DNA of 63,613 nucleotides, counting the filler, from Reclinomonas americana ATCC 50394 (lineage: Eukaryota): NCBI GenBank assembly GCA_048213135.1. It is 11 parts of 11 records of this genome, joined end to end, with 100 filler letters (N's around TTAATTAATTAA, not from the genome) between each part and the next. Parts side by side here need not be neighbours in the genome. Positions count along the whole stretch, not along the records: positions 1 to 12,052 come from AFZH01016975.1; 10 more parts are not named here. One strand, given 5' to 3'. Position numbers and translations under genes: made by a program. Within the stretch, counting starts at the first letter, position 1. Each line of letters starts with the position of its first letter. The notes beneath the pieces were generated by a model. It saw only the letters and a program-made list of their open reading frames with translations, did no database searches and was not told the DNA's origin. Shown here in pieces: positions 1 to 63,613 of the stretch.

Positions 1-500
1 CGGTGTTAGCGATCGCGAATCGAACCGACGCGTACGTCGATATGGAGAGGCAGTGTGTTCTCGACAGTGTTCGCTACTCTCCTCTCTAGCAATCATCTCC
101 AACGCTGATCCCCCGTCCTCCCTCCTTCCCACCCTTCCCACAACGCTGATCCCCCGTCCTCCTTCCTTCCCACCCCTCCATTGTCAAAGTTTGCTTCCTT
201 TTTTGTCACTCCGTTTCCGAACCGAACACTCGTCGGCGATTGGGGGTTAATGCCATCTCACCCTGTCGGTGATACCAACACGCCGTGATGAGACAGAGGT
301 GCATCTGCATGCGACACTCTCCTCTCGCACCAACCGACGCCGCAACTCCGCAGAAAACAATCGCGAGCGCGCTGCCTCGTTTGTCCCATCGCCATCGTTT
401 CCATTTTTGGTGGTTTTCTTTCTTTCGGGGAGCAGACAGACAGCGCTGTTTTTGTGTGTCAGAGGACGAATCCGTCTCAAGAAGAGAGAGAGACGCAGAG

Positions 501-3500
501 ATGAAGTTTGGCACATACCTCAAGCTGCATGCGCTGAGCAAGTGGCGCGGGCACTACCTCCGCTATGACCGCCTCAAGGAGCAACTGAGTTTGCTTCTCG
601 CGGCCATTCAGTCGTGCAAAGAGGCGACAGACTCCTCTGCTGGCAGGTGTTTCTCTCTCTCCCTCATACATACAGCAGACATACAGACAGAGAGAGAGAG
701 GAGAGTGTACACCACGCACGAAAAGAGCACTCGGTGAAGAACGCTCTTTTAGACACTATTGACGTCGCTGCAGCTGATGCAAACTGTTTTGTGTGTCTCA
801 TTCCACATCATCTCCTCGCACACTCGTCCTCGCTGTGTCTCTCTCGCGTACATGAGTTGGCGTCATGATGCGGACCGAAAAAAAGTGGTCGTGCTCACAC
901 GCTGTGCGTGGACATGAGAGAGGCTTTTCACGCGCGCGCGACTCACACTCTTCCCCCCCCCCCCTTTTGCTATTTTCTCCTGAAGCAGTGCGGCTGCCAA
1001 GGTCGACTTTATGCCCGAGGAGAAGGCCTTCGAGGAGGAGATTCGAGAAGCCATGCGGTAAGATCGCAGCGAGTATTGGTACCAAGCAATCAAAAAAGGG
1101 TGCATATTTTCTTAACTCCTGTACGCGTGTATGTGTCTTCTCTCTCTCTGCGTGTGTCTCCACAGCGACTTGAACAACTTTGTGGCGTCGCAAAAGTCGT
1201 CTATTGACGCGCAACTGCTTGCGTTTGAGCGACGATTCGCCGCTGATGATTCCCCGCCTTCGCCTTCGACTGCTGCCGCTGAGTCGCAGAACAACGCGAA
1301 TGCTGTGCCTGCATTGACACGACGCATCAGCTTCCGCAGCTCGTCTGCTGCTGGCGGCAAGTTCAGTGCCGCACTGGAGGATGTGGCGCGCTTCCGAACA
1401 CTGTGCGTTGATTTTGTGCAGCTGTGGCACTTTGTGCTGCTCAACGCCGAGGGCGTGCGGAAGCTGCTCAAGAAGCACCGCAAGCACACGGGCTACAAGG
1501 ATGACCCGCGCTTGGATCCGGCCATTGCCTACAAGCAGCCGTTTGCGGAGCAGGAGTCGCTGACGTGGTTTTGTTGCGCAGTGTGTCTCGTTGGTGTCAT
1601 GACGCGCGCTCCTTTGGTTCCTGATTGCTCCTCCTCATCCCCATGCAGCCAAGCGCTTCACCTCTCTGCGCACCGTGTTCCAGGAGCGCGCCTCAGCGCA
1701 TGTCCGCGAGACCGAACTCTTCAAGCAGCTGCTGGAGATTGATCTTTCGCGCGCCCCGCTGCTGTTGGACGGTGGTGCGACCAAGGGCGCTGACACGCCC
1801 ACTCGCTCCGCACTCCACCGCGTGCTCCACCATCGTCAGTTGGTGCCACTTGTGCTCGGGTGGACCCAAAAGGCACGTTCACATTTGCTGTATCTCACAC
1901 TGATTGCTTCCCTCTTTCTGCCACCCAACAACTTGCTGATTGCCCACGACGCTGCAGTTTGTCGACTCGTTTGCCAGCGCTCTGACGCTAGCCGTGGTGG
2001 CACAGTTCATGTGGAACTCTCAGTCGTCGGTTGACGACGGCGGCAGCGTGCACATGATTGGATTCTTGTTCGGTGCAGTAGTGCTCGTTCGTGGACTGGT
2101 GCACATCTCCGCCGCGTATCTGTGGCGTGAGACCGCACCCGGTGCCAGCTGGATGTGGAGTCTCCTGCGCGCCACTGCGCTTCTCCTCATGGCGTCCCTC
2201 GGGGTGTGTGTGTGCCATATCATGAATATCGCGAGTCTGTCCTCACACCATTTGGCCTCTCGCTGCTATGTGTGCAGACTCCTTCGACGGTGTGGCGCTG
2301 GCGACTGTTCTGTGTGCTTCTGCTCGTCGACACCTGGTGCGCGGCGTACGCCAAACTCACGACGCGGGCTCTCGTCGAGGAGAGCAATGGCGGTGACTCA
2401 GCCGGCGGCAGCAACGGCAAGCAGAAGCGCAAGTCGCGTGGTGCGTACCTCCCTCTCCTCCTCTTCCACCTCCACGCGATCTCACTCTCTCGGTGCTCAG
2501 CCAATGCCAGTGAGGCGTACGAGAAGCTCGCGGGCCAATCGGCACCGTCGAGCAGCAACAGCAAGGATCAGGAGGGCTCCGAGTCGTTGCTGCGTCCACG
2601 CACTCGTCTCTTGGTGACACGTGTGTTCTCGTTGTGTGGCACGGGCACCGCAGCATCCGCCGCCTTTGCCGGCATGTCAGTGGGAACGGGCTTGGTGGTG
2701 GCGGCAGTGGCCGTGATGGCACAGCTGCCCGTCTTCTACGCGTACTTTGTGAAGCGTCGTGCCGCTGCGGAGACCGGCGGAAGCGCAACCTCCTCGCGCA
2801 ACCTCCGCCTGACCGCTGTGTCGGTCTTGTCGCAGCACAGCGCCATTCGCTGGCTGCTGGTGATCGCTCTCGCCGGCACTGGCGGTGGTGCGTCGGTGTG
2901 GCTGTCGTGCGCGTTGCTGAGTGTGGCCGTCCGATTGGGTCAGTTGGTGGCCCAGATGTCGGTCAAGAAAGTCACTGGGTTCGTGCATCCTCTTCTGTTC
3001 CTGTGTCGACGATCACACGATGAGCTCATCCCCTCTCTGGCAGCACGTACTCGCCCCGCTTGGCCTCGGCCATGGTCGCCATTAGCCTCGCGCTCCACGG
3101 AACGCTGGCGGCACTGTGCGATTCGAGCCTGTCACGCTTGCTGGCCGACTCGGTGGTCACGAGGTGCGCGTTGGGTGGTGTTCGTGAAGCCGCCTGTCGC
3201 CGATTACTCACTTATTTCAAAACTCTCCAGCGAGTCGGTGACGTTCGCCAACCCGCGCTTGTTGCTGGCCGCTGTGGTGTTGGCCGCGCTCGGCGGCGTC
3301 TCGTCGGTGGCGCTGGCCACGTCGGCGGATCGCGACAAGGAGAAGCAAAGCGGCGGCGACGCTGAGTCCCGTCATCCGTCGGCTCGAGCGCGCCCGTGGC
3401 TCTTCCGCTTTGTGCGTTTCTCATTCATTGTGCTGGCCAGCATCATCATGGAGGTGTGTGTGTTGCGGGATGAAAAACTGTGGCGCTTTGCATTGCTCTA

Positions 3501-6500
3501 CTCACGCTCTTTCCGGCCAACAGCCATTGGCGGGCGACGCTCTCGGCCTTGTGGTGCTCACGCTGTCGCTGAGTGCATTGTCGCCGGTGGTGGGCGCCTC
3601 GGAGGTGTGGCTCGCTCCCAAGCTGCGCAATCGTGTGTCGTTTGGCAACGCCGACCAGCTGGCGGCGGAGCTTGGATTCGAGCGCCGAGGACGCTTCATT
3701 GTGGTGGAGGGGTTGGATGGTTTGTTGGGGCACAGGGGAGGGAGAGGGGAAGGGAGAGGAAAAGGGAAAGGGAGGGAGGGAGGAGGAGAGGAAGAGAGAG
3801 AGGGTAACACGGAGAGTGAGAGAGAGAGAGGGAGGAAGAGAGGAGGAGAGGACTATACTTGGAGAGTGAGTGTGTGGGAGAAAGATGTACATATCAGTGT
3901 GCTGCTGGAGAGAATGTGCACGGGAGCAGAGAGGCATGCACAGCTGCATCTGCACAACTGACAGTATGCGCGAATGGCAGGTTCCGGCAAGTCCACCCAG
4001 CTTTCCCTGCTGGAGATGAAGCTGCGTCTGGCGGGCTACGATGTGGTGACGACGTGCTGGAACTCGTCGTCCATGATGTCGGAGGCCATCAAGGGCGCCA
4101 AGCGTATGCGCCGCATGCGCCGTCGCACTTTTGCTCTCAGTCAGGCGGCCGATCTCACGGAGCAGCTGTACGATCTCGTGATTCCGTCGCTGAGGTGTGT
4201 TGGTGTCTTGCAGACTGCGATACCTTTCTGTTACTGAAAACTCCCTCCCCCACCACCAGTGCCGGCAAGATTGTACTCTCCGACCGCTACTTTTTCACCA
4301 GCCTCGCCCGCGATGTGGTTCGCGGAAACGATCGCAGCTGGCTGACCAATCTCTACTCGACGATGATCCGACCGGATCTGGTCATGTACTTCCGCGTTCC
4401 GGTGGAGACGGCCATCTCCCGTGTGGTGAAGCGACGTGTCGAGATCTCGTCGCAGACGGCCAACGATTCCGAGGACGAGGGCCAGGAGTCGGACGACGAT
4501 GGAGCCGGCACGCAGGCGGACACGCAGGTCAGTGGCACTCGCCGTGCCGCCAGTGGTGAGTACGCCGAGGAGCGATTCCGCACCACGTCTGGATCTGCGT
4601 CTGGATCGGCTTCCGGCTCACGCAGCCGCTCGGCCGCCGCTGATGCCGTCGACGTTGAGCCACATGCAGGGGACCACGATGACATTGAGCATGACGAGGA
4701 CCACGATGCCACCGAGCTGGTGACCGAGGGCGAGAAGGTGGAGCCGCAGCTGTCGTATTATGAGGCTGGACTTGATTTGCACTTGGACAATGATCCGCTC
4801 AAGGTGGGCAGGGGGAGAAGGGGAAGGGGATGGAGAAGAGAGGATGCACGGGGAGGGTGTGCAAGAGAGAGAGAGAATAGAGAAGTGGTGGTGTGCGGGG
4901 AGATAGAGGGGATAGAGAAGAGAGGATGCACAGAATGAGGGACGAAGAGTGGGAGAGAGAGAGAAAAGAAGAGAATTGAGAAGTTGAGGTGCGCGGGAGA
5001 GGAAGTGTGCACGGAAAGGGAGAATGCAGGGAAGTGAGTTTGTGCAAGAAGGGAAGGGACGGAGAGGAAAGTGAGATAAGAAAGCTGCAGAGTGCGTTGC
5101 AGCAGCTCGCCAGCTGTGGGATACGTGATCGAAAACTAACTTAATCCTCGTCTTGTCTTGCAGAATTTCGTCACCTTCCAGACCATGGTGGCCCAGCAGT
5201 ACGACAACATGGCTGACGGTACACCCCTGCATGGTCTCGTGATCGGCTTGTCCTTGTAATGACGCGCTGTGTTTGTTGCAGAGTACGGATTCGAGGTGTT
5301 CGACGCCACTCAGGCCATGGAGCTGCAGCACAACCGCGTGATGAGTCTGGTGAACCAGACGCTGATGCGTGGCCATCCTGTGCGCACCAAGAATCGCAAC
5401 GTGTTCGACAAGGATCCTGAAGACGATCCGCCAGCGATTCGCGCCAACTACATGAAGAAGCAGATCACCACCGGTCTCAACTTCTTCTACCGCACCTCTC
5501 ATCAGGTGTGTAACCTATACCAGTGCGTGGTGGCGGAGATGATGCTGACCAGCACTGGTTATTGCTGCAGACCATGCTGGAGCGCATGGAGGCACTGATG
5601 GATGTGCAATCGATGCCGCGTGTGCTGTTGCACGGCAATCCGCACGTCGACAATTTTGCCAAGGTTCTCGATTTGAGCGCTTCTTCTTTCTTTTCACTCG
5701 TGTGTGTGTGTCTGAGTCCCGGTTTGTACGCAGGGTGTGTTGGGCACGGCCATGATCGATTTCGATCGCTCCAAGTTCGGTCCGTACGCCTGGGACCTCA
5801 TCCGTCTGATGGTGTCGCTCTCCATTCGCACCAAGAACCCGGCCAGCCACGTGCTGCAGTGGTCGCTGGTGCAGAGCATCATGGACGGCTATCGCTGGGG
5901 ATTCCTGCGCCCCTCGGTTCCGTTCCGTCAAATGAGCAAGCTCACGGTGCGATCAAAGGTGGTCTTGCAAAGTTGCCCACACACTCTGCTTACTTTCGAG
6001 TTCGCCAGGTCATCAAGCCGACGGCGGATGAGCTGAGCATGACGGCGTACCTGAAGGCGAACCGCGGCTGGGCGGCGCAGATGCGCGAGAACCCGCTTGC
6101 TGCTGACCACGAGGATGTGGTGACGCTGGTGCGCCTATATGCGGAGAACACGGAGAATCCGAGTCTGCTGACCGAGTTGCGATGGTTGCGGTGGTGGTTT
6201 TGGGGGTGGTGATTACTGACGCCACAACACTCGCAGCTATCGCATTGAGGAGGCCGGCAAGGGCTTTGGTTCATTCCTGGTCATCCGCTACTTGGTGGTG
6301 ATGGCACCGGTCGACGAATCGTCGGGCGCTGATCGCATTTTCCTCGACATCAAGGAGTCGCGTCACGATCCGGACACGCAGTTCTTTACCAATCCGTTCG
6401 AGCACAGCGGCAAGCGCATGATTGTGGCCTCGGACTTGTATGCGCCTGGTTGGGGCGATCATGAAGTTGCGTGACGGGAAAGAGGGGGGAGGGGGAGAGA

Positions 6501-6679
6501 TGGGAAAGGGGGAAGGGAGGGAAGGGAGAGGCAAGAGACTGGGATGCAAGTACTTGTCGTGGTGAGAGTTTTGCTGTCGGCGAGGGAGTGGATGTTGTGG
6601 GATGAGCCAGAAGAGAAGAGCGCTTGCTGATGAGGTACACAGTGAGTTGGTTGGCAAGGGAGGGAGGGAGGGAGGGAGG

Positions 6680-6719
<40 letters not shown>

Positions 6720-7224
6720 AAGAAGAAAGAGAGAGATATGGATGCGAAAGCAGCACAAGTCTGCTGAGTTGAAGATCGTCTTGGACAAGCAGTCGTTTTC
6801 GACCTGTATTCTATGGGGACAGTGGCGTTCCATTTCTCTTTCCCTAACGTTCTCCCACACGCAGGGGTACTGCACGTACAAGGGCATCGAGTACCACGTT
6901 CGCCACATTCCACCGCACAAGGCCAAGCTGACGGGCCAGCTGAACCCGGCCGATGCCAAGGAGTTCGCCATTGCCGTGGCGACCCAGCTCGGCCGTGGCC
7001 ACCGCCTCTCGCTGCAGCCAAAGTGGATGCCGCGTGATCTGCTGCTGCATCTGGATGAGTTGAGTCGCTGCCGGAGAGGAAGAGAAACATCACCGCTCAC
7101 ACTGTTTGTCATCTTTGCGCGCAGCAACATGCCGGCCATCACTGACACGGCGAACCAGCTGCGTCAGGAGCTCACTGCAGCATACTGGCGATACCGCTCC
7201 AAGGCCTCGGCCACGTCGGACTGA
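501..7224 (+). CDS. Multi-exon fusion protein: SPX domain + ~11-12 TM MFS-like region + thymidylate-kinase-like P-loop domain + DUF2252-like kinase-fold domain
   Basis: SPX start MKFGTYLK..W..HYLRYDRLKEQL (501) and end LNAEGVRKLLKKHRKHTG (~1440-1495). Hydrophobic exons 1958-3620. P-loop IVVEGLDG|SGKSTQ is split by intron 3720-3980, followed by WNSS, SDRYFFTSLARD, PDLVMYF and YYEAGLD. Then FFYR, VLLHGNPHVDNF, IDFDRSKFGPYAWDLIRL, GFGSFLVIRY, LDIKE, YHVRHIPPHK, QLGRGH; stop TGA 7222-7224. GT-AG joins keep the frame; the junction near 1565-1648 is uncertain. Confidence 0.85.
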
Positions 7225-7456
7225 TTTGTGATATCGCGACTGCCACAAAGAAAGGCAAAGGAGAGAAAAAAAGCAAGCAAAAAAACCACGGAAAGTATCA
7301 ATGAGGAAATAAATCACAGGGACACGCTGCAGCGGCTCTGCGCTGCGTGCCGGACGAGTACGGAGGAGAAGGATCTCTGGAAAGTCCCACCACGCATTGC
7401 GACTTGTCCCCCGAAGCATTGATTTTTCTTTTTTCACGTTCGTGCGCAAAGGTCGC

Positions 7457-10400
7457 ATGCCGAGGGACTCTACAACAAGAGAGGAGCGCGATGAGCTCGC
7501 AGCAGGTGAAACGTCGCAAGATATAATGGCCACTGATGCAGCTGCAGTGGCGGTTGCGGTGCCAGTGGAAGTGTCGCCTGAGAGTACACATGATGAGGCC
7601 GTGCGAGGCAAGACACGGTGGGAGGCTGTGTGGGCGTTCTTGGTGGGAGTGTTGATGACACAGGTGAGTGAGACAGAGACAAGAAGGAGGAGGAGTGGAG
7701 TTGTGAGAGTAAGGAAAAAAGGGAGAGTCTGACTTGAGATGGTGTGTCTTTGTTGTAGGTGTGGAACAATGCGAATCAGGTCGTACAACCGCTGATTGTG
7801 CTCAATCTGACTGGGGATGTTGAGTGGGAAGACGTTGATGTGCATTACAATTGCCTCTGTCTCACTTGCATGCTGGCGTTCTGCAGCCGTCTCTGGTGGC
7901 TTTCTTGTTGGTGAGATCGGCAGTGGACCATTTTTTTTTTGTTTTTCCCACATCTCGTGCCGCTCACTGCATGGTGTGTTTGTTGGTAGATGGCATATGC
8001 TGTGGCGAATGCCTTCGGCAGCGCGTTTAGTGGATTCGTGTACCCGTTCTGCTCGCCGAGGTTCCTGTTGGTGGTGTTTTGCCTTGGACGGTGAGCGAGG
8101 GGTGAGGGTGAGGGGAAGGGGGGAAAGAGAGGCGCAGAGGAAAGAGAATGAGAGGGACAGAGACAAGGAAGAAAAAGAGGCGAGCAGACTGCCGACAGCG
8201 TGTGTGGAAGGAGGCTGAGAGGGACATGAGATCTGAAGGTGAAGCGAGATGGAAGGGCGGAAGGGAGCGATGATGCAAGAAAGGCATGAAGGACGAGCGT
8301 GTTGAAGAAAGCTGGGAAGTGACACCAGTGAGTAGTGCGAGTGATGCGAGGAATGCACGAAGAGTGAAAGAAGTTGGCAGCTCTTACGACAGTAGAGGAG
8401 AGAAGGAACTGATGCAAGGAAAGTGTGAAAAAGAGTTTGTTGATGGAGCAAGTGGAGAGATGAGAGGAAGGTAACAGTCATGCGTGATGAAGAAAGCTGG
8501 AATAGAGAGAAGGAGGCACGCTGTAAGATGACACTTGGGATTTGACACCTGTGAGCAGTGCGAGTGATGCGAGGAATGCATGAAGAATGGAGGAAGGTGG
8601 CAGCTCATACGACAGCAGTGGAGAGAAGAAGACAAGCTGAAGCCTGGCAGGCAAGGGAGTGATGTAAGGAAAGCACGAAAAGGAGTTTGTTGATAGAGGC
8701 AAGCAAATAAAAAATGAGTGGCAGCAGTGATGCGTGGTTAGCTTGAAAGACAAGTGTTAACGAAGGCTGAGAACGCCACTGAACATGACAGACAGATGTG
8801 AGCAGAATGATGGGGACGTAGAGATTGGTTTGACTGAACGAAGAATGCAGAGAGCTTGAGTTCGATAGACAGCATGAGCGATTCAATCGAGTCAGAAGAA
8901 GTGTTGAACAGTTGCAGTGCCGTATGCAACCTTTCTTTGAACAAGAAGGCGCTTGAGAGATAACATTGATTGTTTCTTGGTTGCGCTCACACCGTTATTA
9001 CAGCTCGTGTTGTCAACTCGCTGTCGCCCTGTGTTGCGTTCACTGTGCCATGTCTCCTTTTGCGATGATGCGCTGACACTCTCCCACAGTGTACTTGTCA
9101 AAATGGGGTCCTGGCTGGATCATTCTCATTCTGTTCGCATGTGATACGGCGTTCATCGGTGAGAACGGCCAACCAGTGTCCTGCTCAGCAGTCTCTCCCA
9201 AGCCTCATTTCTCACCGCAGGCTGTTTGGACACGGTTCGCATGTCGTTCCCACGTTCGGCATACGGCTCCGACAAGGCCGCCCTGAACAAGCTCAATGCC
9301 GACTATCAGTTCTCTTTCGACCTCGGCACTCTTGTCGGTGCGTGTCTCCCTGGCAGAGGGAGAATGCGTGAAGCCGAGCAGCTGCTCACATGAAATTTCT
9401 CAGGTCCGCTGCTGGTCGGCTTTGTCATGTCATACACGGAGGACGTGTACGTCTCCAGCTTCCTTGCACCAGCCGGATTTGTTGTGGCGGCCTTTACGTT
9501 CTTGTGAGTGATGCAGACGGCAGAGTGTGTGCCACTAGATGCTCACCACCACCGCATGTGCGTTAGGTTTGTTCCTCCCGTCAAGAGTGACGCCGAGGCA
9601 GCACGGGCCGCCAGCGGTGGCACTCTGAACAAAAAGGCCAGCAACAAGGAGATCATGAAACAGCAGTCGCCGTGGGCCACCTGCCGGTACTTGTGCGGCA
9701 ACACCAAGATGGCGGTGGCCTTCTTTTCGTTCCTCACGCTGCAAGGTGAGTTGTGTGTGTTGGAGAAGTCAAGGAAGGTGACCTCACTCCCTCACTCCGT
9801 GCGCAGTGTATCGGCTTCGCAGCGTGTACTCGTCGCTGTTTGCGACGCAAGTGCTGCATTCACAGACGTATACGGCGTGGATGGTGTGTGTGCGGTTGCA
9901 AGAAAGTGATATGTGGCACAGTCGCTTGGTCTGACGCACGGTATGTGTCCCTTTGCAGATGGCTGCTTTCGGTGCTGGCGGCATGCTCGGCTCAGTGATT
10001 TATCGCATGCTGGAGAAGCGCGACAAGATCTCCGCCGTGTGGTTGACGGCCTTTGCGGCCATTTCACTGGCCGTGTTTTCGTTGGTGTGGATTCCGGAGG
10101 TGGTTTTCGAGACGTGGCCCGTCGGCGTGCGTTTTGGCATTGCCGAGGCCGTCATCTTTTTCATGCTGACGGGGAATGTCATGGCGCGTCTGGCGTCCAC
10201 TGTGGTGTTGCAGGAGGAGATGAAGAGTTGCGGGACAAGGGGGAGGGATGGGGAGGGGGTAAGGAGGGGAAGGGGGAGAGGGGGGAGCGGAGAGGGAAGG
10301 GGAAGGAGGGTAAGAGGGCAGAAGGTATGTATCCTGTTGTACTTCGGGATTCTGAATATGTTTCATGAGTTACGCGCTCGCGTGATATAGAGATCATATC

Positions 10401-11486
10401 TATACGCGCAGTGTCGTGTGCGATCGTGAGCTTCTTGAGCGAGTCACACTTCTACCTTGTGCGAGTCAATCATGCAACCGAGCGATATTGTGATGTCGAA
10501 TCCACTCGTATCTGTATGCTATACGTGTGTGCATAGTTAGTCTCAACGTGTCATACCCTCCTGAGTGACGCGAACTCCATGAGTATGCATTACGTCTTTA
10601 CTAACGGCGTGTCTCACTCTTGTACCGTACAGGAGAGCGCAATGCTGGAGTCATGGCGCTGGTTGCGTTTTTCGTGTACGCACTCTTGCGCTGCCATGAG
10701 TGCGACGCGCTGACTGTTCCATTTTCGTGCAGCGTGGCTTCCTGACCAAGTGCGTGGCCGGTGGATTGCAGGGACTGCTGGGCCTGTCGTTCAAGCTCAC
10801 CAACAACGACGGCATCCTCTCGTTTGTCATTTTCTCGTCGGTTACCCTGGTGTTTGGCGGGCTGCAGGTGGGTGGCGGGATAAGGGACAAGGAGTGGGGT
10901 GAGAGAGCAGAGGTGGAAGTGTCTCTTGTGAAGATGGTGAAGGGAGAGAGTGATGAATGAGAGAGAGGGACAATGATACTGAGTGTGTAATGTCTCTGAG
11001 AGAAAGCGCGAAGAGCATCTGTAACACTTAACAGTTTTAGTTGTAGAAGAAAAAGTACACGAGACTTGGCGATCACTGGTAGATGCTCATTGTTGTGTAT
11101 GGACCAGTGAAGTTTCTATTATTTGAGCAGCTGCAGCCTTTCGAAAGTGATCATGACTGTGTCATGCCTGTGAGAGTGTGAGGTAGGTAGAGAAAGGTGC
11201 GACTGTGGGAGGCAGGGCAGGCTTGATTGGTGAAGCGTCTACACTTGGTGGTGCACTCCCACTCATCGCTTGTTGCGCACAGATTATGTTTGCCATTCTG
11301 TACCGCTGCGTCGGCGCCGAGTCCAGCTCTGGACAGACCCGCAAGCCGGAGAAGAAGGACATTGAGATGGCGACCCGGAAGAAGAGCAGCACCGATGGAG
11401 ACGAAGGAGAAGAAGGAGAGGGAGGAAGCACCGGCAATCTGCGTTTGTTGGCGGCAGATGAGCAGCGGTCGGGTGCAATGCAATAA
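7457..11486 (+). CDS. MFS transporter (DHA3/macrolide-efflux-like), multi-exon
   Basis: Spliced translation gives PLIVLNLTGD|PSLVAFLL|MAYAVANAFGS, LNKLNADYQFSFDLGTLV|GPLLVGFV, MAAFGAGGMLGSV and many TM segments; acidic C-terminal tail; stop TAA 11484-11486. Confidence 0.75.
8310..8760. repeat. Degenerate ~225-bp direct repeat inside an MFS intron
   Basis: GTGCGAGTGATGCGAGGAATGCA...GGCAGCTC.TACGACAG.AG.GGAGAGAAG...GAGTTTGTTGAT occurs at ~8335 and ~8558. Confidence 0.6.
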
Positions 11487-11726
11487 GTGACCGCAAGTAC
11501 AGCAGTGTGATTGTTTTTTCGTAGCCGACTCATTATCAATACCGGACCTCGATATTTGACTCCGAACAGACGCAGGAAGCCTCTGCTGCCATCGACATTG
11601 CATCGTCGCTGGTGACAGGGACACAATAGGGATTTGCACCGCGATGGCCGTCGCTGGCTTCCCAGCCGAGTAACACTTCCACAGTCCGATCGATCGGCCG
11701 GGCAGTGAGCGTTAAATCACTCGCAA

Positions 11727-12257
11727 ATGCCTCCGCGAAGGAAGACTGTGCGCAAATCGCCCGAAGAGCGCTTCTTTGAGGCATGCGAAGGTACAAGAGA
11801 GAGAAGAGGGAGAAAGAGAAGAGGAGAAAGAGAAAGGGACAGATTGACAGAGAGAGAGGGCGAGAAAGAGAGAGAGAACGAGAGAGAGAGAGAGAGGAGA
11901 GAGAGGAGGGAGGGAGGAGAGAGAGAGAGAAGAGTAGAGGAAGAACGAGGAAGCAGACGAACGACGAGGACAAGAAGAGAGTGAGTGGGAGAGACGTGAG
12001 ACAGACAGACAGACAGACAGACAGAGAGAGAGAAAGAGAGAGAGAAGAGAGANNNNNNNNNNNNNNNNNNNNNNNNNNNNNNNNNNNNNNNNNNNNTTAA
12101 TTAATTAANNNNNNNNNNNNNNNNNNNNNNNNNNNNNNNNNNNNNNNNNNNNAGAGAGAGAGAAAGAGTTCAGGAAGGAACAGGGAAAGGCAGACAGACA
12201 GGCAAGAAGAGAGTGATTGGGGAGAGACTGAGACAGACAGACAGACAGACAGACAGA

Positions 12258-12303
<46 letters not shown>

Positions 12304-59684: not shown

Positions 59685-60782
59685 TCACAAACGGAGACGG
59701 TCGTCGGTGAAACAGCGATGAACAACAACTTCGGCCTCCTCGAACAGGAAGCAACGCATCACAATCTCTGGGAGGCAGCGCGGATCTTCGTCTTCTACCT
59801 CTTCGTCTTCTTCCTGCATCTCCTGCACAGCGCACATGGCCGCCCGGGCACAGTCGAGCTCCTGGCAAGCGAGACCGCATGGTGAAGACCACACACGCAC
59901 GGTGGAGTCACAGCTCCCGCTTACAATGTGCTGCCCGTCAGGTGAAATGGCAACCGACCACACGTAGTTTGTGTGTCCCTCCAGCCGTCGCACCTCCTCT
60001 CCACTCTCCATAGACCACACTCGCACGGTCTTGTCTTGACTCCCACTCACGATGTGTTGCCCGTCAGGAGTGATGGCCACGGTGCGCACCCAGTCAAAGT
60101 GACCCTCAAGCCGTCGCTCCTCCTCTCCGCTCGCCATTGACCACACGCGGACAGTGCTGTCACTGCTCCCACTGACAATGAGCTCTCCATCGAGAGCGAC
60201 GGCGACGGAAAAGACGAGACCAGTGTGCCCCTGCAGTCGGCGCACCTCCTCGCCAGTCCCCAATGACCATACTCGCACTGAGTAATCATACGAGCCACTA
60301 CCACTCACAATGTGCTGGTCATCGGCGGTGACGGCGACAGACCACACCGCCCCAGTGTGTCCTTCCAACCGTCGTACTTCTCTGCCACTCACCAACAACC
60401 ACACGCGCACAGTTGTGTCGGCACTTCCGCTCACAACGTACTCGCCGTTGCGTGTGATGGCGACAGAGTACACGGCATCCTTGTGCCCCACCAAACGTCG
60501 CACTTCCTTCCCGCTCGCCAGCGACCACACTCGCACCACTCCGTCTGTATTCCCACTCACAACGTACTGGCCATCGGGAGTGACGGTGATGCACTTTACC
60601 CAGTGCGAGTGCTCATTCAACAATCGCACTTGCTCTCCTCGCGCCAGTGACCACACGCGCACAGTTCTGTCATCATTCCCGGTCACAATGTGCCGACCGT
60701 CAGGAGTGATGGCCACTGATCGTACAGCGCGACTGTGGCCACGCAGACACTTGCACGGGAGGGAAGGGAGAGGCGAGGTCAT
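59685..60782 (-). CDS. Intronless WD40 protein copy 7
   Basis: 7 repeats + tail PCGLACQELDCARAA..PRCLPEIVMRCFLFEEAEVVVHRCFTDDRLRL. Confidence 0.9.
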   Translation of the reverse strand: MTSPLPSLPCKCLRGHSRAVRSVAITPDGRHIVTGNDDRTVRVWSLARGEQVRLLNEHSHWVKCITVTPDGQYVVSGNTDGVVRVWSLASGKEVRRLVGHKDAVYSVAITRNGEYVVSGSADTTVRVWLLVSGREVRRLEGHTGAVWSVAVTADDQHIVSGSGSYDYSVRVWSLGTGEEVRRLQGHTGLVFSVAVALDGELIVSGSSDSTVRVWSMASGEEERRLEGHFDWVRTVAITPDGQHIVSGSQDKTVRVWSMESGEEVRRLEGHTNYVWSVAISPDGQHIVSGSCDSTVRVWSSPCGLACQELDCARAAMCAVQEMQEEDEEVEDEDPRCLPEIVMRCFLFEEAEVVVHRCFTDDRLRL

Positions 60783-61036
60783 TGTGAAGAGATGAAGAAG
60801 TAATTGTTGTGCAGGACGTTTTGCACATGCCCTTCAACAGGGCATGGCATGGCTTTCNNNNNNNNNNNNNNNNNNNNNNNNNNNNNNNNNNNNNNNNNNN
60901 NTTAATTAATTAANNNNNNNNNNNNNNNNNNNNNNNNNNNNNNNNNNNNNNNNNNNNTGGCTGTCATTGTGTTTCACAACAAGGATGCCATATGCATGCA
61001 CAAAGAAACAACAGCTAAAGCGCAAAAAACAAATGA

Positions 61037-62143
61037 TCACCAGCGAAGGAGACGGTCGTCCACGAAACAGCGATGCACAATGACTTCGGCCTCCTCGACC
61101 AGGAAGCAGCGCAGCACGACCTCTGGTAAGCAGCGCGGATCTTCGCCACCCTCTCCGCCGTCGTCCTGCATCTCTTGCACAGCGCTCATGGTCAAGCACG
61201 CGCAAGAGAGCTCTAGTTGAGCGAGACCACATGGCGTGGACCACACTCGCACAGTGGTGTCATGACTCGAGCTCCCACTTGCAATGTACTGACCGTCGCG
61301 AGAGACGGCAACCGATGTAACCTCTCCTGTGTGTCCCGACAACTGCCTTCTCTCCTCGCCGTTCGCGAGGGACCACACTCGCACCGTCTTGTCGCCACTC
61401 CCACTCACTACGAGCTCGTTGTCGGGAGTCACGGCGACAGACGACACCCACTCAGTGTGCCCTTCCAGCAGTCGCACTTCTTTCCCTGTCGCCAGCGACC
61501 ACACTCGCACTTTCCTGTCACTGCTCCCGCTCACTATAAACTTACCATCGGCGGAGGTGGCGACAGAATACACCGGACCAGTGTGTCCCCGCATCTGCCA
61601 CACATCCTCACCGGTCACCATTGACCAGACTCGCACCGTGTTGTCAAACAAGCCGCCACCGCTCACAATGTGCATGGCGTCGGAAGTGACGGCGACAGAA
61701 CGCACCGCCCCAGTGTGTCCTTCCAACTGTCGCACTTCGCTGCCACTCGCCAGCGACCACACGCGCACTGTCTTGTCGGCACTTCCACTCACAACGTACT
61801 CACCATCGCGCGTGACAACGGCAGAGAACACCACATCCTTGTGCCCTTCGAGTCGTCGCACTTCCTCCCCGCTCGCCAGAGACCACACTCGCACGGTTCC
61901 GTCTGCGCTGCCACTCACAATGTGCTTGCCGTCGGGAGCAATGACGACGGACCACACCCAGTTGGTGTGCCCCACCAGCAGACGTACTTGTTGTCCACTC
62001 GCCAGTGACCACACGCGCATTGTTTTATCTCGGCCACCACTCACCACGTGTTGGCCGTCGAGAGTGAAGGCGACGGAGAGCACCCCTCGTGTGTGCGTTT
62101 GTATGCACTTGCAGGGAAGGAGGGGAGGAGGAGGCGAGGTCAT
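61037..62143 (-). CDS. Intronless WD40 protein copy 8
   Basis: 7 repeats + conserved tail; intact ORF. Confidence 0.9.
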   Translation of the reverse strand: MTSPPPPLLPCKCIQTHTRGVLSVAFTLDGQHVVSGGRDKTMRVWSLASGQQVRLLVGHTNWVWSVVIAPDGKHIVSGSADGTVRVWSLASGEEVRRLEGHKDVVFSAVVTRDGEYVVSGSADKTVRVWSLASGSEVRQLEGHTGAVRSVAVTSDAMHIVSGGGLFDNTVRVWSMVTGEDVWQMRGHTGPVYSVATSADGKFIVSGSSDRKVRVWSLATGKEVRLLEGHTEWVSSVAVTPDNELVVSGSGDKTVRVWSLANGEERRQLSGHTGEVTSVAVSRDGQYIASGSSSHDTTVRVWSTPCGLAQLELSCACLTMSAVQEMQDDGGEGGEDPRCLPEVVLRCFLVEEAEVIVHRCFVDDRLLRW

Positions 62144-62278
62144 GGTGCTTGTGCGTGCGAGATGACGGTGTTGTGAGAATCACGGGACAACTTCGAACAC
62201 CTTGCTCCATCACAGCATGCCATACATTATCGTGCAAGGCGCGTAGATGAAAACGAAAGATGAGGAACAACCAGACAA

Positions 62279-63385
62279 TCACCAACGGCGACGATCGTCC
62301 ACGAAACAGCGATGAACAACGACCTCTGCATCCTCGACCAGAAAGCAGCGCATCACAATCTCCACGAGACAGCGCGGATCATCGTCATCGTCCCCGTCTT
62401 CTACTAGCATCTCCTGCACAGCCAGCATGGCCGCCCGCGCACAGTCGAGCTCCTGACGCGCGAGACTGCACGCGGAAGACCACACTCGCACGGTGCCGTC
62501 AAGGCTGCCGCTGACAATATACTGAGCGTCGGAAGAGACGGCAACGGATTGCACCGTATTAGTGTGCCCTTCGAGCATTCGTACTTCTTGTCCACTCGCC
62601 AGCGACCACACCCGCACGGTCATGCCTCGAGTACCGCTCACAACGTATTGACCGTCGAGAGTGACGGCGACAGAACGCACCGCGTCAGAGTGTTGCAACC
62701 GCTGCACCTCTTCCCCTGTCGCTAGTGACCACACTCGCGCTGTCGCGTCACTGCTCCCGCTCACGACATGCTGACCATCAGGCGTGAAGGCGACAGAATA
62801 TACAGGACCATTGCGACCCGGCAACTGCCGCACCTCCTCGCCGGTCATCATAAACCATACACGCACGGAGTTGTCAAACAAGCCGCCACCACTCACAACG
62901 TGCTGGGCATCGGCGGTAACGGCGACAGAATTTACCCATCCAGCGTGTCCCTTCAACTGTCGCACTTCGTCTCCTCTCTCAAGTGACCACACTCGCACTG
63001 TCGCGTCCGTACACCCACTCACGATGTGCTGTCCATCCAGAGTGACAGCGACGCACGTCACCCACCCTGTATGTCCCTTCAACCGTCGTACTTCTTCCCC
63101 GTTCTCGAATGACCACACCCGCACTGTTGTGTCAGCACTCCCGCTCACCACGTGTGCACCATCGGGAGTGATGGCGACAGACGACACTCCGCCACCGTGC
63201 CCCTCCAACCGTCGCTCCTCCTTGCCACTCGCCAGTGACCACACTCGCACTGTCATGTCGTCACTCCCACTCACCACGTGGTGGCCGTCGGGAGTAAGTG
63301 CAACAGAGTGCACGTATCCAGTGTGGCCACGCAGGCACTTGCATGCGAGAGGAGGAGAAGGAGGAAGAGAAGGAGTCGACGCCAT
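62279..63385 (-). CDS. Intronless WD40 protein copy 9
   Basis: Starts MASTPSLPPSPPLACKCL; 7 repeats + conserved tail. Confidence 0.9.
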   Translation of the reverse strand: MASTPSLPPSPPLACKCLRGHTGYVHSVALTPDGHHVVSGSDDMTVRVWSLASGKEERRLEGHGGGVSSVAITPDGAHVVSGSADTTVRVWSFENGEEVRRLKGHTGWVTCVAVTLDGQHIVSGCTDATVRVWSLERGDEVRQLKGHAGWVNSVAVTADAQHVVSGGGLFDNSVRVWFMMTGEEVRQLPGRNGPVYSVAFTPDGQHVVSGSSDATARVWSLATGEEVQRLQHSDAVRSVAVTLDGQYVVSGTRGMTVRVWSLASGQEVRMLEGHTNTVQSVAVSSDAQYIVSGSLDGTVRVWSSACSLARQELDCARAAMLAVQEMLVEDGDDDDDPRCLVEIVMRCFLVEDAEVVVHRCFVDDRRRW

Positions 63386-63613
63386 CGATGGTGAGAGCGT
63401 GATGGAATGCGAGGGAGAGGACACTCACTTCGTCGACGTTCAAACAACGCAACAACAAATTCATTCACCAACAAACAAGCAACAGCTGTCTTGATGACCA
63501 AGTTCAACCGTATCCAAAACATCAACACAAACACCAATCTTGAGGCAGCAGCAGGTTTCTTGTGTGTGTGTGTGTGTGTGTTCGCTCGAGCTCTCGCGAT
63601 CGGAGCTCCGAAC

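Follow-up and report, generated by a model that had tools for sequence, protein, structure and literature searches.

Introduction

To our knowledge, the synthesis of polyphosphate (polyP) in eukaryotes and its control are settled only for organisms that carry VTC. The membrane domain of VTC has few helices. The plant SPX-MFS transporters for vacuolar phosphate (PHT5/VPT1), XPR1 and Pho87/90/91 also place an SPX domain ahead of a polytopic membrane domain, and we know of none of these with kinase domains. According to the part of PMC9911596 available to us, the VTC polymerase Vtc4 has the order SPX-TTM-TM, works coupled to translocation, and carries in its SPX domain the residue pattern Y22, K26, K133 and K129, K132, K136. 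In Dictyostelium, a bacterial polyP kinase family is at work in a eukaryote, the PPK1 gene there being a bacterial gene acquired by gene transfer (cited in the available part of PMC12995831).

The polyP kinase PPK3 was described in 2026 from archaea and a few bacteria (PMC12995831, cited throughout for the part available to us). In Sulfolobus acidocaldarius, it is a soluble heterotetramer built from two small paralogues, the catalytic Saci_2019 and the regulatory Saci_2020, which form a reversible polyP kinase, and the characterised archaeal enzyme favours the direction from polyP to ATP. The regulatory subunits have lost the P-loop lysine and the arginine of the DRX motif, the catalytic subunit requires the regulatory subunit for good activity, and the residues that bind dTMP are not kept in PPK3; the PDB entry 5h70 is the S. 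tokodaii homologue of the catalytic subunit (cPPK3). The available part of PMC12995831 makes no mention of MFS, SPX, membrane or Elusimicrobia.

Here, we describe a gene in a stretch of Reclinomonas americana DNA (the window, 63,613 nucleotides including filler) that joins an SPX domain, a membrane domain, a PPK3-like P-loop domain and a DUF2252-like domain. Comparison of sequences leads us to favour, by a little, the reading that this is one four-part membrane protein with SPX-regulated, PPK3-like phosphotransfer involving polyP, and with a core of bacterial origin. The literature search found no paper that describes this architecture, in agreement with an earlier note on this DNA, which knew of no SPX protein with these two kinase domains.

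Results

The gene model runs on the + strand from the ATG at 501 to the stop codon at 7222-7224. Splice-site enumeration and a frame check gave 17 introns and 18 exons (501-646, 1166-1593, 1649-1842, 1958-2209, 2278-2978, 3044-3163, 3231-3453, 3524-3719, 3981-4194, 4260-4803, 5164-5218, 5282-5505, 5571-5663, 5734-5946, 6009-6175, 6237-6465, 6865-7058 and 7125-7224) with an open frame of 1430 codons, which encodes 1430 aa. All 17 predicted introns have the form GT..CAG. In tblastn, the protein P0001 (1401 aa; Pfam SPX, Thymidylate_kin and DUF2252) was colinear with the gene, with residues 7-1392 of the query lying over 489-7200 of the window, and its kinase parts reached summed E values of 1e-57 and 4.5e-86, which far exceeds chance. 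The order of the parts is SPX, 11-12 hydrophobic segments, a P-loop domain of the thymidylate-kinase fold and a DUF2252-like domain, and the colinearity with P0001 together with the open frame thus bears out the earlier proposal that one frame within 501-7224 joins four parts in this order on the + strand. The exon at 3524-3719 spans the junction between the last hydrophobic helix and the P-loop, and the exon at 5282-5505 spans the junction between the end of the kinase domain and the start of the DUF2252-like domain. Uncertain parts of the model are the first donor (647, with 734, 707 or 614 as alternatives), intron 2 and, at 2979 or 3003, intron 5, and an additional in-frame intron of 60 nt is possible near 2440-2500; the architecture is unaffected by any of these.

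The SPX domain lies in exons 1 and 2 (501..1593, + strand, about residues 1-190). Scored exon by exon on single open-frame pieces and not spliced, against a gathering cut-off of 27.8 bits, the window matched Pfam SPX (PF03105) at 501-737 (E 1.8e-5, 25.4 bits, profile 1-38) and at 1116-1742 (E 0.09, 13.2 bits, profile 305-330). With the same cut-off, P0001 scored 26.3 bits and the Ancoracysta protein P0040 scored 41.6 bits, above the cut-off; the SPX domain of P0040 matched those of XPR1 (8tyu, E 5e-13) and Vtc4/Vtc3 (about 1e-7) in the PDB. For exon 1, all PDB matches at E<=1 (21/21) were SPX-domain proteins (XPR1/SLC53A1, PHO90, 'SPX domain' and 5ijp, which we take to be an SPX-domain protein), the best at 0.047, and the best match of exon 2 was 5ijp (E 0.027). 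The translation at 501-590 reads MKFGTYLKLHALSKWRGHYLRYDRLKEQLS, and its N-terminal MKF... helix, MKFGTYLKLHALSKWRGHYLRYDRLK at 501-578, aligns with residues 1-30 in the SPX domains of XPR1, PHO90 and Vtc and holds Y22 and K26, predicted residues of the phosphate binding cluster (PBC), at 564-578. RKLLKKHRK at 1458-1484 aligns to KIIKKHDK of 5ijp and gives the K..KK..K pattern of helix alpha-4 (K148, K151, K152, K155), that is, the lysine surface cluster and the third PBC lysine. The motifs quoted earlier for an SPX domain with intact basic ligand-binding clusters are therefore present, and Y22, K26 and K148/K151/K152/K155 fit the Vtc4 pattern given in the available part of PMC9911596. In P0001, which is the nearest relative, the lysine helix is degenerate (RILEKHAH in place of K..KK..K), so that InsP gating is perhaps not conserved.

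Hydropathy of the membrane domain (1958..3595, + strand, about residues 256-712) gave 11-12 hydrophobic segments, arranged as four, a long loop and seven to eight, which agrees with the 11-12 transmembrane helices counted in the earlier note. The check for an MFS domain gave a negative result: no Pfam family, MFS families included, matched the membrane domain in the open-frame pieces of the window or in P0001 at E<=1, and hmmsearch and hhalign found no similarity between the window's membrane domain and the MFS profile of the bacterial homologues (probability <1%). The profile did match the membrane domain of P0049, at 96-98%. As leads only, the ESM look-alikes of the membrane domain were all of the MFS clan (0.96-0.97), and those of the N-terminal half of P0001 were SPX and SPX+MFS_1 clusters (0.92). 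A single-sequence AlphaFold model of the membrane domain had a pLDDT of 43, too low for a reading of the fold.

Like VTC, the gene encodes a single polypeptide in which an N-terminal SPX domain with the same basic residues is combined with a catalytic domain related to polyP and with a membrane part; unlike VTC, it has the catalytic fold of a P-loop kinase and about 12 hydrophobic segments. Among the 13 Pfam families of P0001 at E<=1, there was no VTC family (SPX, Thymidylate_kin, DUF2252/APH and generic P-loop families only), and a VTC/TTM domain was therefore not detected. The likeness to VTC would at most be one of working in a similar way, not of membership. The earlier description of a VTC analogue built from unrelated parts holds with respect to VTC, but the core is no new invention, since bacteria have it too. 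The gene resembles the plant SPX-MFS transporters, XPR1 and Pho87/90/91 in the position of SPX; unlike the plant transporters, P0001 has no MFS_1 match at E<=1. It differs from Dictyostelium PPK1, which belongs to another family and is fused to neither SPX nor a membrane part.

The P-loop domain (3686..5343, + strand, residues 743-1045) matched Pfam Thymidylate_kin on single open-frame pieces at 3962-4237 (E 4.7e-6) and 3820-4938 (E 1.3e-7), and a profile from bacterial homologues scored 253.6 bits on it. The P-loop kinase of the thymidylate-kinase fold that had been read from the sequence is confirmed, and its closest solved relative is the PPK3 homologue 2plr/5h70. P0001 matched the 2plr/4nzy/4rzx/5h70 group at E 2.4e-33 and the best canonical dTMP kinase at 4.8e-13, the corresponding values for P0040 were 2.9e-35 and 1.1e-16, and 2plr was the only PDB match of the window exon piece 3962-4237. 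The P-loop GLDGSGKST is split by an intron (3710-3719 plus 3981-3997), and further motifs are WNSS at residue 780, DRY at 4282-4290 and YYEAGLD at residue 991. In the lid region, about 75 aa of acidic, low-complexity sequence are inserted, and a very basic stretch, KGAKRMRRMRRR, lies where 2plr has KEAKKKDLL. GKST and DRY are found in the window, P0001, P0040, P0049, P0053, P0003 (as DRW) and P0012, and between Elusimicrobiota and eukaryotes the P-loop lysine, the DRY arginine and many further columns do not vary. With PPK3 the gene shares the fold, the P-loop GKS/T, DRY with its arginine and the WNSS...K.AK...TF block; it differs in that one catalytic-type domain is fused to SPX, membrane and DUF2252-like parts, in a eukaryote and without a regulatory paralogue.

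In a quick IQ-TREE tree of 139 domain rows, with 5 canonical dTMP kinases included and the Sulfolobus sequences left out, the PPK3-like group, to which the window belongs, was separate from the canonical kinases with 99% SH-aLRT. Tandem pairs of catalytic-like and regulatory-like domains formed a clade (99% SH-aLRT), split into a GK type and a GR type, and in this tree without Sulfolobus the DUF2252-fused domains all lay outside the tandem-pair clade, yet inside the PPK3-like group. Against 2plr, the catalytic-like pair member scored 186 bits, the regulatory-like member 153.5 and the fusions 118-125. Because of this position and these lower scores, the domain is PPK3-like and not a demonstrated cPPK3 orthologue. 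No regulatory-type (rPPK3) gene was found in the window, where there was no second thymidylate-kinase-like match, and in two complete Elusimicrobiota genomes there was, besides the fusion, only the canonical kinase and a distant, weak match of 23 bits, with no adjoining rPPK3.

The DUF2252-like domain (5383..7206, + strand, residues 1059-1425) is predicted to have the protein-kinase-like fold with permuted lobes that is stated for DUF2252 (PMC9758233; bioRxiv 10.64898/2026.09.18.752743). Pfam DUF2252 (PF10009, cut-off 22.3 bits) matched at 5716-6036 (E 3.6e-5, 23.4 bits) and 6220-6474 (E 0.1), P0001 scored 45.2 bits, and the bacterial-homologue profile scored 416.9 bits on the domain. Its motifs are HGNPHVDN at 5631-5654, DFDRS at 5758-5772, in which DFD is kept, and QLGRGH at residue 1374. 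In the alignment, typical DUF2252 members (two proteins, L080 and L084, 465-471 bits) read CGDCHxLN; the window reads HGNPHVDN, without the catalytic-loop Asp, and the bacterial fusions read HGSPHVDN. A model of the stand-alone relative P0043 (pLDDT 92.8) found nothing in the PDB at E<=0.001 with Foldseek, just pieces of kinase C-lobes; with VIA-align, the best Z was 6.1 (NahK, rmsd 5.5, 159 aligned), and other APH-type kinases gave Z 4-5. Of the two kinase domains claimed earlier, the DUF2252-like domain itself is supported by Pfam, and a second kinase may be an overstatement, with N where typical members have the catalytic-loop Asp.

With MFS-PPK3-DUF2252 proteins of Elusimicrobiota, the PPK3-DUF2252 core of the window shares 51% and 46% identity. 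All 28 bacterial-type proteins found at E 1e-135 to 1e-167 have Thymidylate_kin and DUF2252, and MFS_1 is listed for 26 of them. At the 19 Elusimicrobiota loci with a full-length fusion, an ApaH-like Metallophos gene and a second MFS gene are each present in 19/19 and PPK1 in 13/19; three of the six loci without PPK1 are contig ends, and the adjoining PPK1 is genuine (TIGR03705, 700 bits). The bacteria with the fusion also carry PPK1 and PPK2, so the fusion is not their sole polyP route. These fusions, labelled 'dTMP kinase' or 'MFS transporter', share with the window gene the PPK3-DUF2252 module, the motifs, the position of the membrane domain and an MFS gene nearby. They differ in having no SPX domain, no introns and an Ala/Pro-rich, signal-like N-terminus, and their membrane domain is a clear MFS_1, whereas that of the window is not recognisable as such. 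The literature search found no paper on the Elusimicrobiota MFS-PPK3-like-DUF2252-like fusion.

Other forms combine the same parts differently. The Ancoracysta transcript P0040 is SPX-PPK3-DUF2252 without a membrane part, a bdelloid rotifer has an MFS-PPK3-DUF2252 form without SPX, and P0036, P0038, P0039 and P0047 are MFS-DUF2252 forms without a P-loop domain. Inorganic pyrophosphatase (InPase) is fused to a PPK3-like domain in P0071, P0073, P0075 and P0117, and a 791-aa ORF of Phycisphaera has a C-terminal PPK3-like domain behind an N-terminus that, by eye, we presume to be Ppx/GppA-like.

Discussion

The link to polyphosphate that the earlier note drew from the SPX domain alone is supported in part, since the P-loop domain is homologous to PPK3 (2plr/5h70), PPK1 adjoins the bacterial fusion at most loci, and related domains are fused to presumed Ppx/GppA-like or to pyrophosphatase parts. 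This is support by homology and context. In the reading that we slightly favour, the PPK3-DUF2252 core would have a bacterial origin, as would probably the neighbouring MFS gene, and the SPX domain would have been added in eukaryotes. The N-terminal SPX domain would be cytosolic, with all six predicted inositol-(pyro)phosphate-contacting residues kept, and would set the PPK3-like activity by the phosphate status of the cell. The PPK3-like domain, with its predicted catalytic-type P-loop lysine and DRY arginine, would move phosphate between ATP/ADP and polyP, and the membrane domain of about 12 helices would anchor the enzyme at the membrane, perhaps also as a carrier of phosphate or of some other solute. 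The DUF2252-like domain appears always fused behind the PPK3-like domain, with no regulatory PPK3 subunit nearby, and would most likely serve the kinase as a fixed partner or a regulator, or act as a module that binds nucleotide or polyP, and less likely be a conventional second kinase.

A more specific proposal, which we put forward tentatively and would not expect to hold in full, is a second polyP machine, independent of VTC, in some eukaryotes. A PPK3-type kinase would have been acquired from bacteria along with its adjoining transporter gene, the added SPX domain would have brought this membrane-set kinase under inositol-pyrophosphate control, polyP synthesis or mobilisation would be coupled to solute movement across the membrane, and the DUF2252 fold would be a built-in activator in place of the regulatory PPK3 subunit.

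It is also conceivable, if rather unlikely, that the protein is an SPX-regulated transporter or 'transceptor' whose two kinase-like domains are non-catalytic sensors of ATP/ADP or polyP that tune transport without making or using polyP. The missing catalytic-loop Asp, the lack of a regulatory PPK3 partner in the window or beside the fusion in the two complete Elusimicrobiota genomes, the MFS-DUF2252 forms without a P-loop domain and, as a lead, the SPX-MFS look-alikes of the N-terminal half are consistent with such a protein. However, the invariance of the P-loop lysine, the DRY arginine and many other columns from Elusimicrobiota to eukaryotes is as expected for an active kinase, and the soluble P0040 has no transporter to regulate.

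We regard as improbable a machine for nucleotide salvage, in which the P-loop domain would be a true (d)NMP kinase acting on a nucleotide or analogue imported by the membrane domain, with a second phosphorylation by the DUF2252-like domain. Pfam Thymidylate_kin and NCBIfam TIGR00041 'dTMP kinase' are matched above their cut-offs (P0001, 95.9 against 83.25 bits), relatives are labelled 'dTMP kinase' in databases, and the model of the DUF2252-like relative appears nearest to small-molecule kinases (NahK, fructosamine-3-kinase, homoserine kinase, choline kinase). Against this, canonical dTMP kinases are matches weaker by 20 orders of magnitude than the PPK3 homologue, a separate canonical dTMP kinase is present in each of the five genomes checked (128-181 bits, against 69-92 for the PPK3-like copies), and PPK1 adjacency and the SPX fusion indicate phosphate and not nucleosides. 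The loss of conserved dTMP-binding residues in PPK3, according to the available part of PMC12995831, argues in the same direction.

Finally, it is very improbable that the single gene is an artefact of the model, with separate SPX-membrane and PPK3-DUF2252 transcripts or a pseudogene, for although the join of SPX to the membrane part depends on predicted introns 2 and 3 and the window's own protein was absent from the collection of 5.8 billion proteins searched, the last membrane helix and the start of the P-loop share one stop-free exon (3524-3719), the introns are uniform and the frame stays open over its full length, P0001 has the identical order in one ORF on a 4452-nt contig, and P0040 is a complete transcriptome ORF that links SPX to PPK3-DUF2252.

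If the favoured reading of an SPX-regulated, PPK3-like membrane protein is true, the PPK3 family extends to eukaryotes, a second, independently assembled SPX-controlled polyP enzyme exists at a membrane, polyP is controlled in a eukaryotic way that was previously undescribed, and the uncharacterised DUF2252 fold gains a concrete biochemical context. A bacterial module of phosphate metabolism is also documented in several unrelated eukaryotes, a bdelloid rotifer included, probably by entry from bacteria. The natural variants with and without the SPX, membrane and P-loop domains lend themselves to dissection.

Downstream of the gene, an MFS-like gene or gene remnant lies at 9208..10225 (+ strand). 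Generic Pfam MFS_1 had no match to the pieces in this interval, and the family-specific profile of the Elusimicrobiota MFS matched four exon-like pieces, colinear in the profile, at 9208-9354, 9400-9504, 9803-9889 and 9962-10225 (25.9, 7.7, 22.6 and 31.0 bits), which were its sole matches in the six-frame window. In sequence, the pieces are similar to the Elusimicrobiota MFS, both that of the fusion and that of the operon, and this gene may correspond to the second MFS of the operon.

A single spliced frame joins the four parts

The gene at 501-7224 (+ strand) has a GC content of 54-64%, and its plus-strand open frames are many and short. When 13 open-frame pieces were scanned with Pfam, Thymidylate_kin matched at 3962-4237 and 3820-4938; for DUF2252 there was one match above the cut-off, at 5716-6036, and another at 6220-6474. 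The P-loop exon, used as query in a word-based search, retrieved one longer protein, P0001 (1401 amino acids). This protein is 75% identical over the exon and has an SPX, a Thymidylate_kin and a DUF2252 domain; its residues 7-1392 match 489-7200 colinearly by tblastn. Introns were placed by enumerating GT/GC..AG pairs between adjacent matches, and the weakly conserved membrane part was read by eye in three frames. The resulting model has 17 introns, all of them GT..CAG (17/17), 12 being 55-70 nt long and the others 115, 261, 360, 399 and 519 nt, and its spliced frame is open for 1430 codons from the ATG at 501 to the stop at 7222-7224. The Pfam matches, the colinearity with P0001 and the spliced frame bear out the claim of the earlier note that four parts are joined in one frame. 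Near alternatives exist for the first donor, intron 2 and intron 5, and an additional 60-nt in-frame intron is possible at about 2440-2500. Two junctions each lie within one exon and are independent of splicing: exon 3524-3719 (+ strand) runs from the last hydrophobic helix into the beginning of the P-loop strand, and exon 5282-5505 (+ strand) takes in the end of the P-loop domain together with the beginning of the DUF2252-like domain. Only a short linker separates these two domains. Single-transcript support for the fusion comes from two relatives only, P0001, a single ORF nearly filling its 4452-nt contig, and P0040, a complete ORF derived from a transcriptome.

The long introns (e.g. 3730-3960, 4810-5150 and 6480-6850) and the intergenic stretch (7090-8600) are filled with purine-rich/pyrimidine-rich low-complexity DNA of the GA/GGA type, which reads GREGGRE... 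or SLSLSL... and yields long spurious minus-strand open frames. The whole window holds 880 N, with N runs about 5 kb downstream of the gene (e.g. about 12050-12150) and none within 501-7224.

The SPX domain keeps its basic residues

The SPX family of Pfam matched 501-737 (E 1.8e-5, the first 38 profile positions) and 1116-1742 (E 0.09, the last 25 positions). Exon 1, which translates as MKFGTYLKLHALSKWRGHYLRYDRLKEQLS, had 21 PDB matches at E<=1, and all 21 are SPX-domain proteins (best E 0.047); they were classed by molecule name with the exception of 5ijp, titled 'Putative uncharacterized protein', which we take to be an SPX-domain structure. These matches (XPR1, PHO90 and SPX domains) align at residues 1-30. 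The best PDB match of exon 2, which contains ...FVQLWHFVLLNAEGVRKLLKKHRKHTGY, was 5ijp (E 0.027). The single SPX scores are weak because the exons were tested one at a time. According to PMC9911596, the InsP6-contacting residues of the Vtc4 SPX domain are Y22, K26, K133 and K129, K132, K136. The SPX domain of the window has Y22, K26, K148, K151, K152 and K155, with the K..KK..K spacing of Vtc4, and its basic ligand-binding clusters thus appear intact at the sequence level, as had been noted earlier. The lysine helix is degenerate in P0001 (RILEKHAH). In P0040 the SPX domain is clear (Pfam, 41.6 bits; XPR1 SPX 8tyu, E 5e-13; Vtc4, Vtc3 and XPR1 chains, E about 1e-7).

The P-loop domain is PPK3-like

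Against all PDB sequences, the best match of P0001 was 2plr/4nzy/4rzx/5h70 ('probable thymidylate kinase', E 2.4e-33), compared to E 4.8e-13 for the best canonical dTMP kinase. P0040 gave E 2.9e-35 for the 2plr type and 1.1e-16 for a canonical dTMP kinase, and the sole PDB match of the window exon 3962-4237 was 2plr (E 4.6e-7). In PMC12995831 (J Biol Chem 2026), Saci_2019 and Saci_2020 of Sulfolobus acidocaldarius, both annotated as thymidylate kinases, are described as the reversible heteromeric polyphosphate (polyP) kinase PPK3, which is composed of catalytic and regulatory subunits and runs preferentially from polyP to ATP; 5h70 is a homologue of the catalytic subunit from S. tokodaii, and the Arg of the DRX motif is lost in the regulatory subunit. 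The paper's text places the PPK3 family in Crenarchaeota and a few bacteria, where it frequently adjoins ppx and other polyP genes; it contains no mention of MFS, SPX, membrane or Elusimicrobia, and mentions eukaryotes for canonical kinases only. The window domain keeps GLDGSGKST, WNSS, DRY and YYEAGLD, and has the strongly basic KGAKRMRRMRRR at the position of KEAKKKDLL in 2plr. Of the earlier assignment to a P-loop kinase of the thymidylate-kinase fold, the fold is upheld by Pfam, and the affinity is closer to PPK3-like proteins than to canonical dTMP kinases.

The position of the domain was examined in a quick IQ-TREE tree (LG+G4, SH-aLRT only) of 139 thymidylate-kinase-like domains, comprising 115 single-gene domains (L021-L093), 5 canonical kinases and 19 fused forms; it left out L094/L095 and identical rows and contained no Sulfolobus sequence. 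All PPK3-like rows split from the 5 canonical kinases (99% SH-aLRT). The members of tandem gene pairs form a clade (99%) that divides into a GK-type (57 rows) and a GR-type (55 rows). This clade includes neither the pyrophosphatase-fused domains nor the DUF2252-fused ones, whether from bacteria or from eukaryotes. The window domain groups with P0001 (89%), then with the related proteins P0049 and P0044 (95%), and then with P0040 (86%). Bit scores against 2plr were 186 for a GK-type pair member, 153.5 for a GR-type member, 118-125 for the fusions and at most about 63 for canonical kinases. Since the fusions lie outside the pair clade and have lower 2plr scores, the window domain is assigned by sequence to the PPK3-like lineage with catalytic-type motifs, and orthology to the catalytic subunit cPPK3 is not established.

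Bacterial homologues lie among polyP genes

A search with full-length P0001 returned P0001 and 28 proteins of 821-1332 amino acids (E 1e-135 to 1e-167), all with Thymidylate_kin and DUF2252 (28/28) and most with MFS_1 (26/28); where a source is named it is Elusimicrobia, and the label is 'dTMP kinase' or 'MFS transporter'. In five bacterial fusions, the Pfam order is MFS_1, Thymidylate_kin, DUF2252, with 170-300 Ala/Pro-rich, signal-like residues ahead of MFS_1. With one genome per prokaryote species, 294 relatives were found and 79 loci were kept, among which L001-L019 (Elusimicrobiota or unclassified MAGs) encode the full-length fusion. A calcineurin-type phosphoesterase (closest to ApaH, with a score under the cut-off) and a second MFS gene are present in 19/19 of these loci, and PPK1 in 13/19. 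Three of the six PPK1-less loci (L004, L006 and L008) stop at a contig edge; in the other three (L012-L014), glucokinase and phosphoglucose isomerase genes, encoded on the opposite strand, come after a second MFS gene. The four successive genes of L018 overlap at their stops and starts (8001-11636, 11633-12307, 12304-13545 and 13254-15701). The PPK1 of the operon is genuine (TIGR03705, 700 bits), and in two complete Elusimicrobiota genomes it lies about 4 kb from the kinase domain of the fusion on the same strand; these two genomes also have canonical dTMP kinase and PPK2 genes.

Loci L021-L079 contain tandem pairs of genes of about 225 amino acids, one with the P-loop GKST and the other with GRST. 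They come from many phyla of Bacteria and Archaea, with Candidatus Obscuribacter phosphatis among the sources. In Phycisphaerales (L028, 8727-11102; L029-L031), a 791-amino-acid ORF with a C-terminal GK-type PPK3-like domain adjoins a GR-type paralogue, and its N-terminal two-thirds, judged by eye, are putatively Ppx/GppA-like with an HD region.

The membrane and DUF2252-like domains are divergent

Hydropathy gives 11-12 hydrophobic segments at residues 256-712, in agreement with the roughly 11-12 transmembrane helices counted in the earlier note. The window and P0001 share only 29% identity in their membrane parts, which matched no Pfam family and, by hmmsearch and hhalign, matched neither the bacterial MFS profile nor P0049 or P0053 (a rotifer relative). 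The membrane domain of P0049 matches the bacterial MFS (hhalign 96-98%). ESM-feature look-alikes are leads and not tests: for P0001 275-712 every one is an MFS-clan cluster (ferroportin-like and MFS_1, 0.96-0.97), and for P0001 1-712 they are SPX and SPX+MFS_1 clusters (0.92-0.93). A single-sequence AlphaFold model reached a pLDDT of 43. The membrane domain is either a strongly diverged descendant of the bacterial MFS or the membrane part of a eukaryotic SPX transporter that took its place.

None of the publications found to mention DUF2252 gives it a function. The family is classed as protein-kinase-like, its N and C lobes being permuted (PMC9758233; bioRxiv 10.64898/2026.09.18.752743), and in Burkholderia a DUF2252 protein is listed among those depleted when phosphate is limiting (PMC13700237). 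We aligned the window, P0001, P0040, P0053, two bacterial fusions, two stand-alone relatives and two typical DUF2252 proteins (465-471 bits). The motif CGDCHxLNFG...DFDET of typical members corresponds to HG(N/S)PHVDNF...DFDRS in the fusion family; where typical members have the catalytic-loop Asp, the eukaryotic forms have N and those of Elusimicrobiota have S. His, Asn and DFD remain in place, with an Asp directly before the Asn, and the fusion-family motif positions are invariant or near-invariant in 25 sequences. A DUF2252-like domain, as the earlier note had it, is upheld by Pfam (above cut-off), but without the usual catalytic-loop Asp. A model of the stand-alone relative P0043 (43 sequences; pLDDT 92.8, pTM 0.90) had no PDB match at E<=0.001 in Foldseek, only kinase C-lobe pieces of 95-115 columns. 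With VIA-align against 48,161 chains, the best match was N-acetylhexosamine 1-kinase 4ocj (Z 6.1, rmsd 5.5, 159 aligned), followed at Z 4-5 by fructosamine-3-kinase, homoserine kinase, choline kinases and antibiotic phosphotransferases, interspersed with cystatin-like sheets. These model-based searches agree with a permuted APH-like fold and are not decisive.

The exact architecture is rare in the collections searched

The profile of alignment A2 (7 rows) was searched against 1.84 billion representatives and picked up 23,290 proteins at E<=0.001, of which 476 reached E<=1e-30. Variants were collected by domain mapping and Pfam on long A2 matches; P0001 is absent from the 150 listed, so that they are no census of eukaryotic members. 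P0040 (794 amino acids, Ancoracysta twista transcriptome) is SPX-PPK3-DUF2252 without the membrane part, and P0053 (1350 amino acids, Rotaria sordida, contigs up to 252 kb) is MFS-PPK3-DUF2252 without SPX and with Asn-rich inserts. P0049/P0177 have a degenerate N-terminus followed by MFS, PPK3 and DUF2252; P0036, P0038, P0039 and P0047 are MFS-DUF2252 proteins in which the P-loop domain is absent; and P0071, P0073, P0075 and P0117 combine a PPK3-like domain with an 'InPase' pyrophosphatase domain (PF18823). Many stand-alone DUF2252-like proteins of about 370 amino acids are also among the A2 matches. A word-based search with P0001 residues 1-712 among proteins of 770-2452 amino acids returned P0001 alone, and the exact architecture of the gene is thus rare in the collections searched.

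The MFS-PPK3-DUF2252 genes of the bdelloid rotifer Rotaria sordida (P0053/P0178/P0179) are labelled 'dTMP kinase' and are a candidate case of genes passed from bacteria to an animal. P0075 (2575 amino acids) also has an ART-PolyVal domain of the kind usually found in the polyvalent proteins that mobile elements encode.

Proposed working of the gene product

The observed basis for a functional reading is the fusion with its conserved motifs of catalytic type, the affinity to PPK3-like proteins, the residues kept in SPX, and the polyP genes that surround the bacterial homologues. With a confidence little better than even, we lean towards a polyP-linked, SPX-controlled kinase. The P-loop domain would swap phosphate between nucleotides and polyP, and SPX would tie this activity to PP-InsP levels, as in VTC; an even helix number would put SPX and the kinase module on the same (cytosolic) side. 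The DUF2252-like domain may replace the missing regulatory subunit, or may bind nucleotide or polyP, and the membrane domain could be an enzyme anchor or a solute transporter. A transporter whose soluble parts act only as a sensor would fit the SPX+MFS_1 look-alikes and would fit the kept P-loop motifs poorly, and we consider it unlikely. Nucleotide salvage would suit the Thymidylate_kin match, and the better match to 2plr than to canonical dTMP kinases makes it more improbable still. A wrong gene model, which the predicted introns between SPX and the membrane part would allow and against which the one-exon junctions speak, is the least probable of all.

A literature search found no publication pairing an SPX domain with a thymidylate kinase. 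For SPX with PPK3, the sole match apparently concerns an older, unrelated use of the name, and among the publications listed on SPX domains, polyphosphate kinase and horizontal gene transfer, none is on this protein to judge by title and abstract start. Within the literature searched, the statement that no SPX protein with both kinase-like domains had been described holds. The constituent families are known; what is new is a member of the PPK3-like group that is eukaryotic, fused to SPX and embedded in a membrane.

A downstream MFS-like neighbour and other window contents

All six-frame window ORFs of at least 30 amino acids were searched with the Elusimicrobiota MFS profile. Only three matched at E<0.01, all directly downstream of the gene on the + strand, and a relaxed search added a fourth, weaker piece. 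The pieces (9208-9354, 9400-9504, 9803-9889 and 9962-10225, + strand) are colinear in the profile, with family-specific profile scores, in that order, of 25.9, 7.7, 22.6 and 31.0 bits, and family motifs are recognisable in them, e.g. NVMARL for NVAARL. The profile of the second MFS of the operon scores slightly lower on these pieces, and the generic Pfam MFS_1 does not match them. Profile searches found no PPK1 or phosphoesterase homologue in the window, and tblastn (1e-5) of the bacterial PPK1, Metallophos and MFS2 genes gave no match to it. By its sequence, 9208-10225 appears to be a eukaryotic copy, interrupted by introns, of the partner transporter of the bacteria; it lies next to the fusion gene and suggests that the transfer took in more than one gene of the bacterial cluster. 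The MFS-like region perhaps starts at about 7765.

Elsewhere in the window, 30812-36942 (+) and 59685-63424 (-) contain long open frames full of WD40 repeats (5-7 per piece), which match beta-propeller families with E down to 1e-95. These regions resemble tandem propeller-gene arrays or one giant repeat protein.
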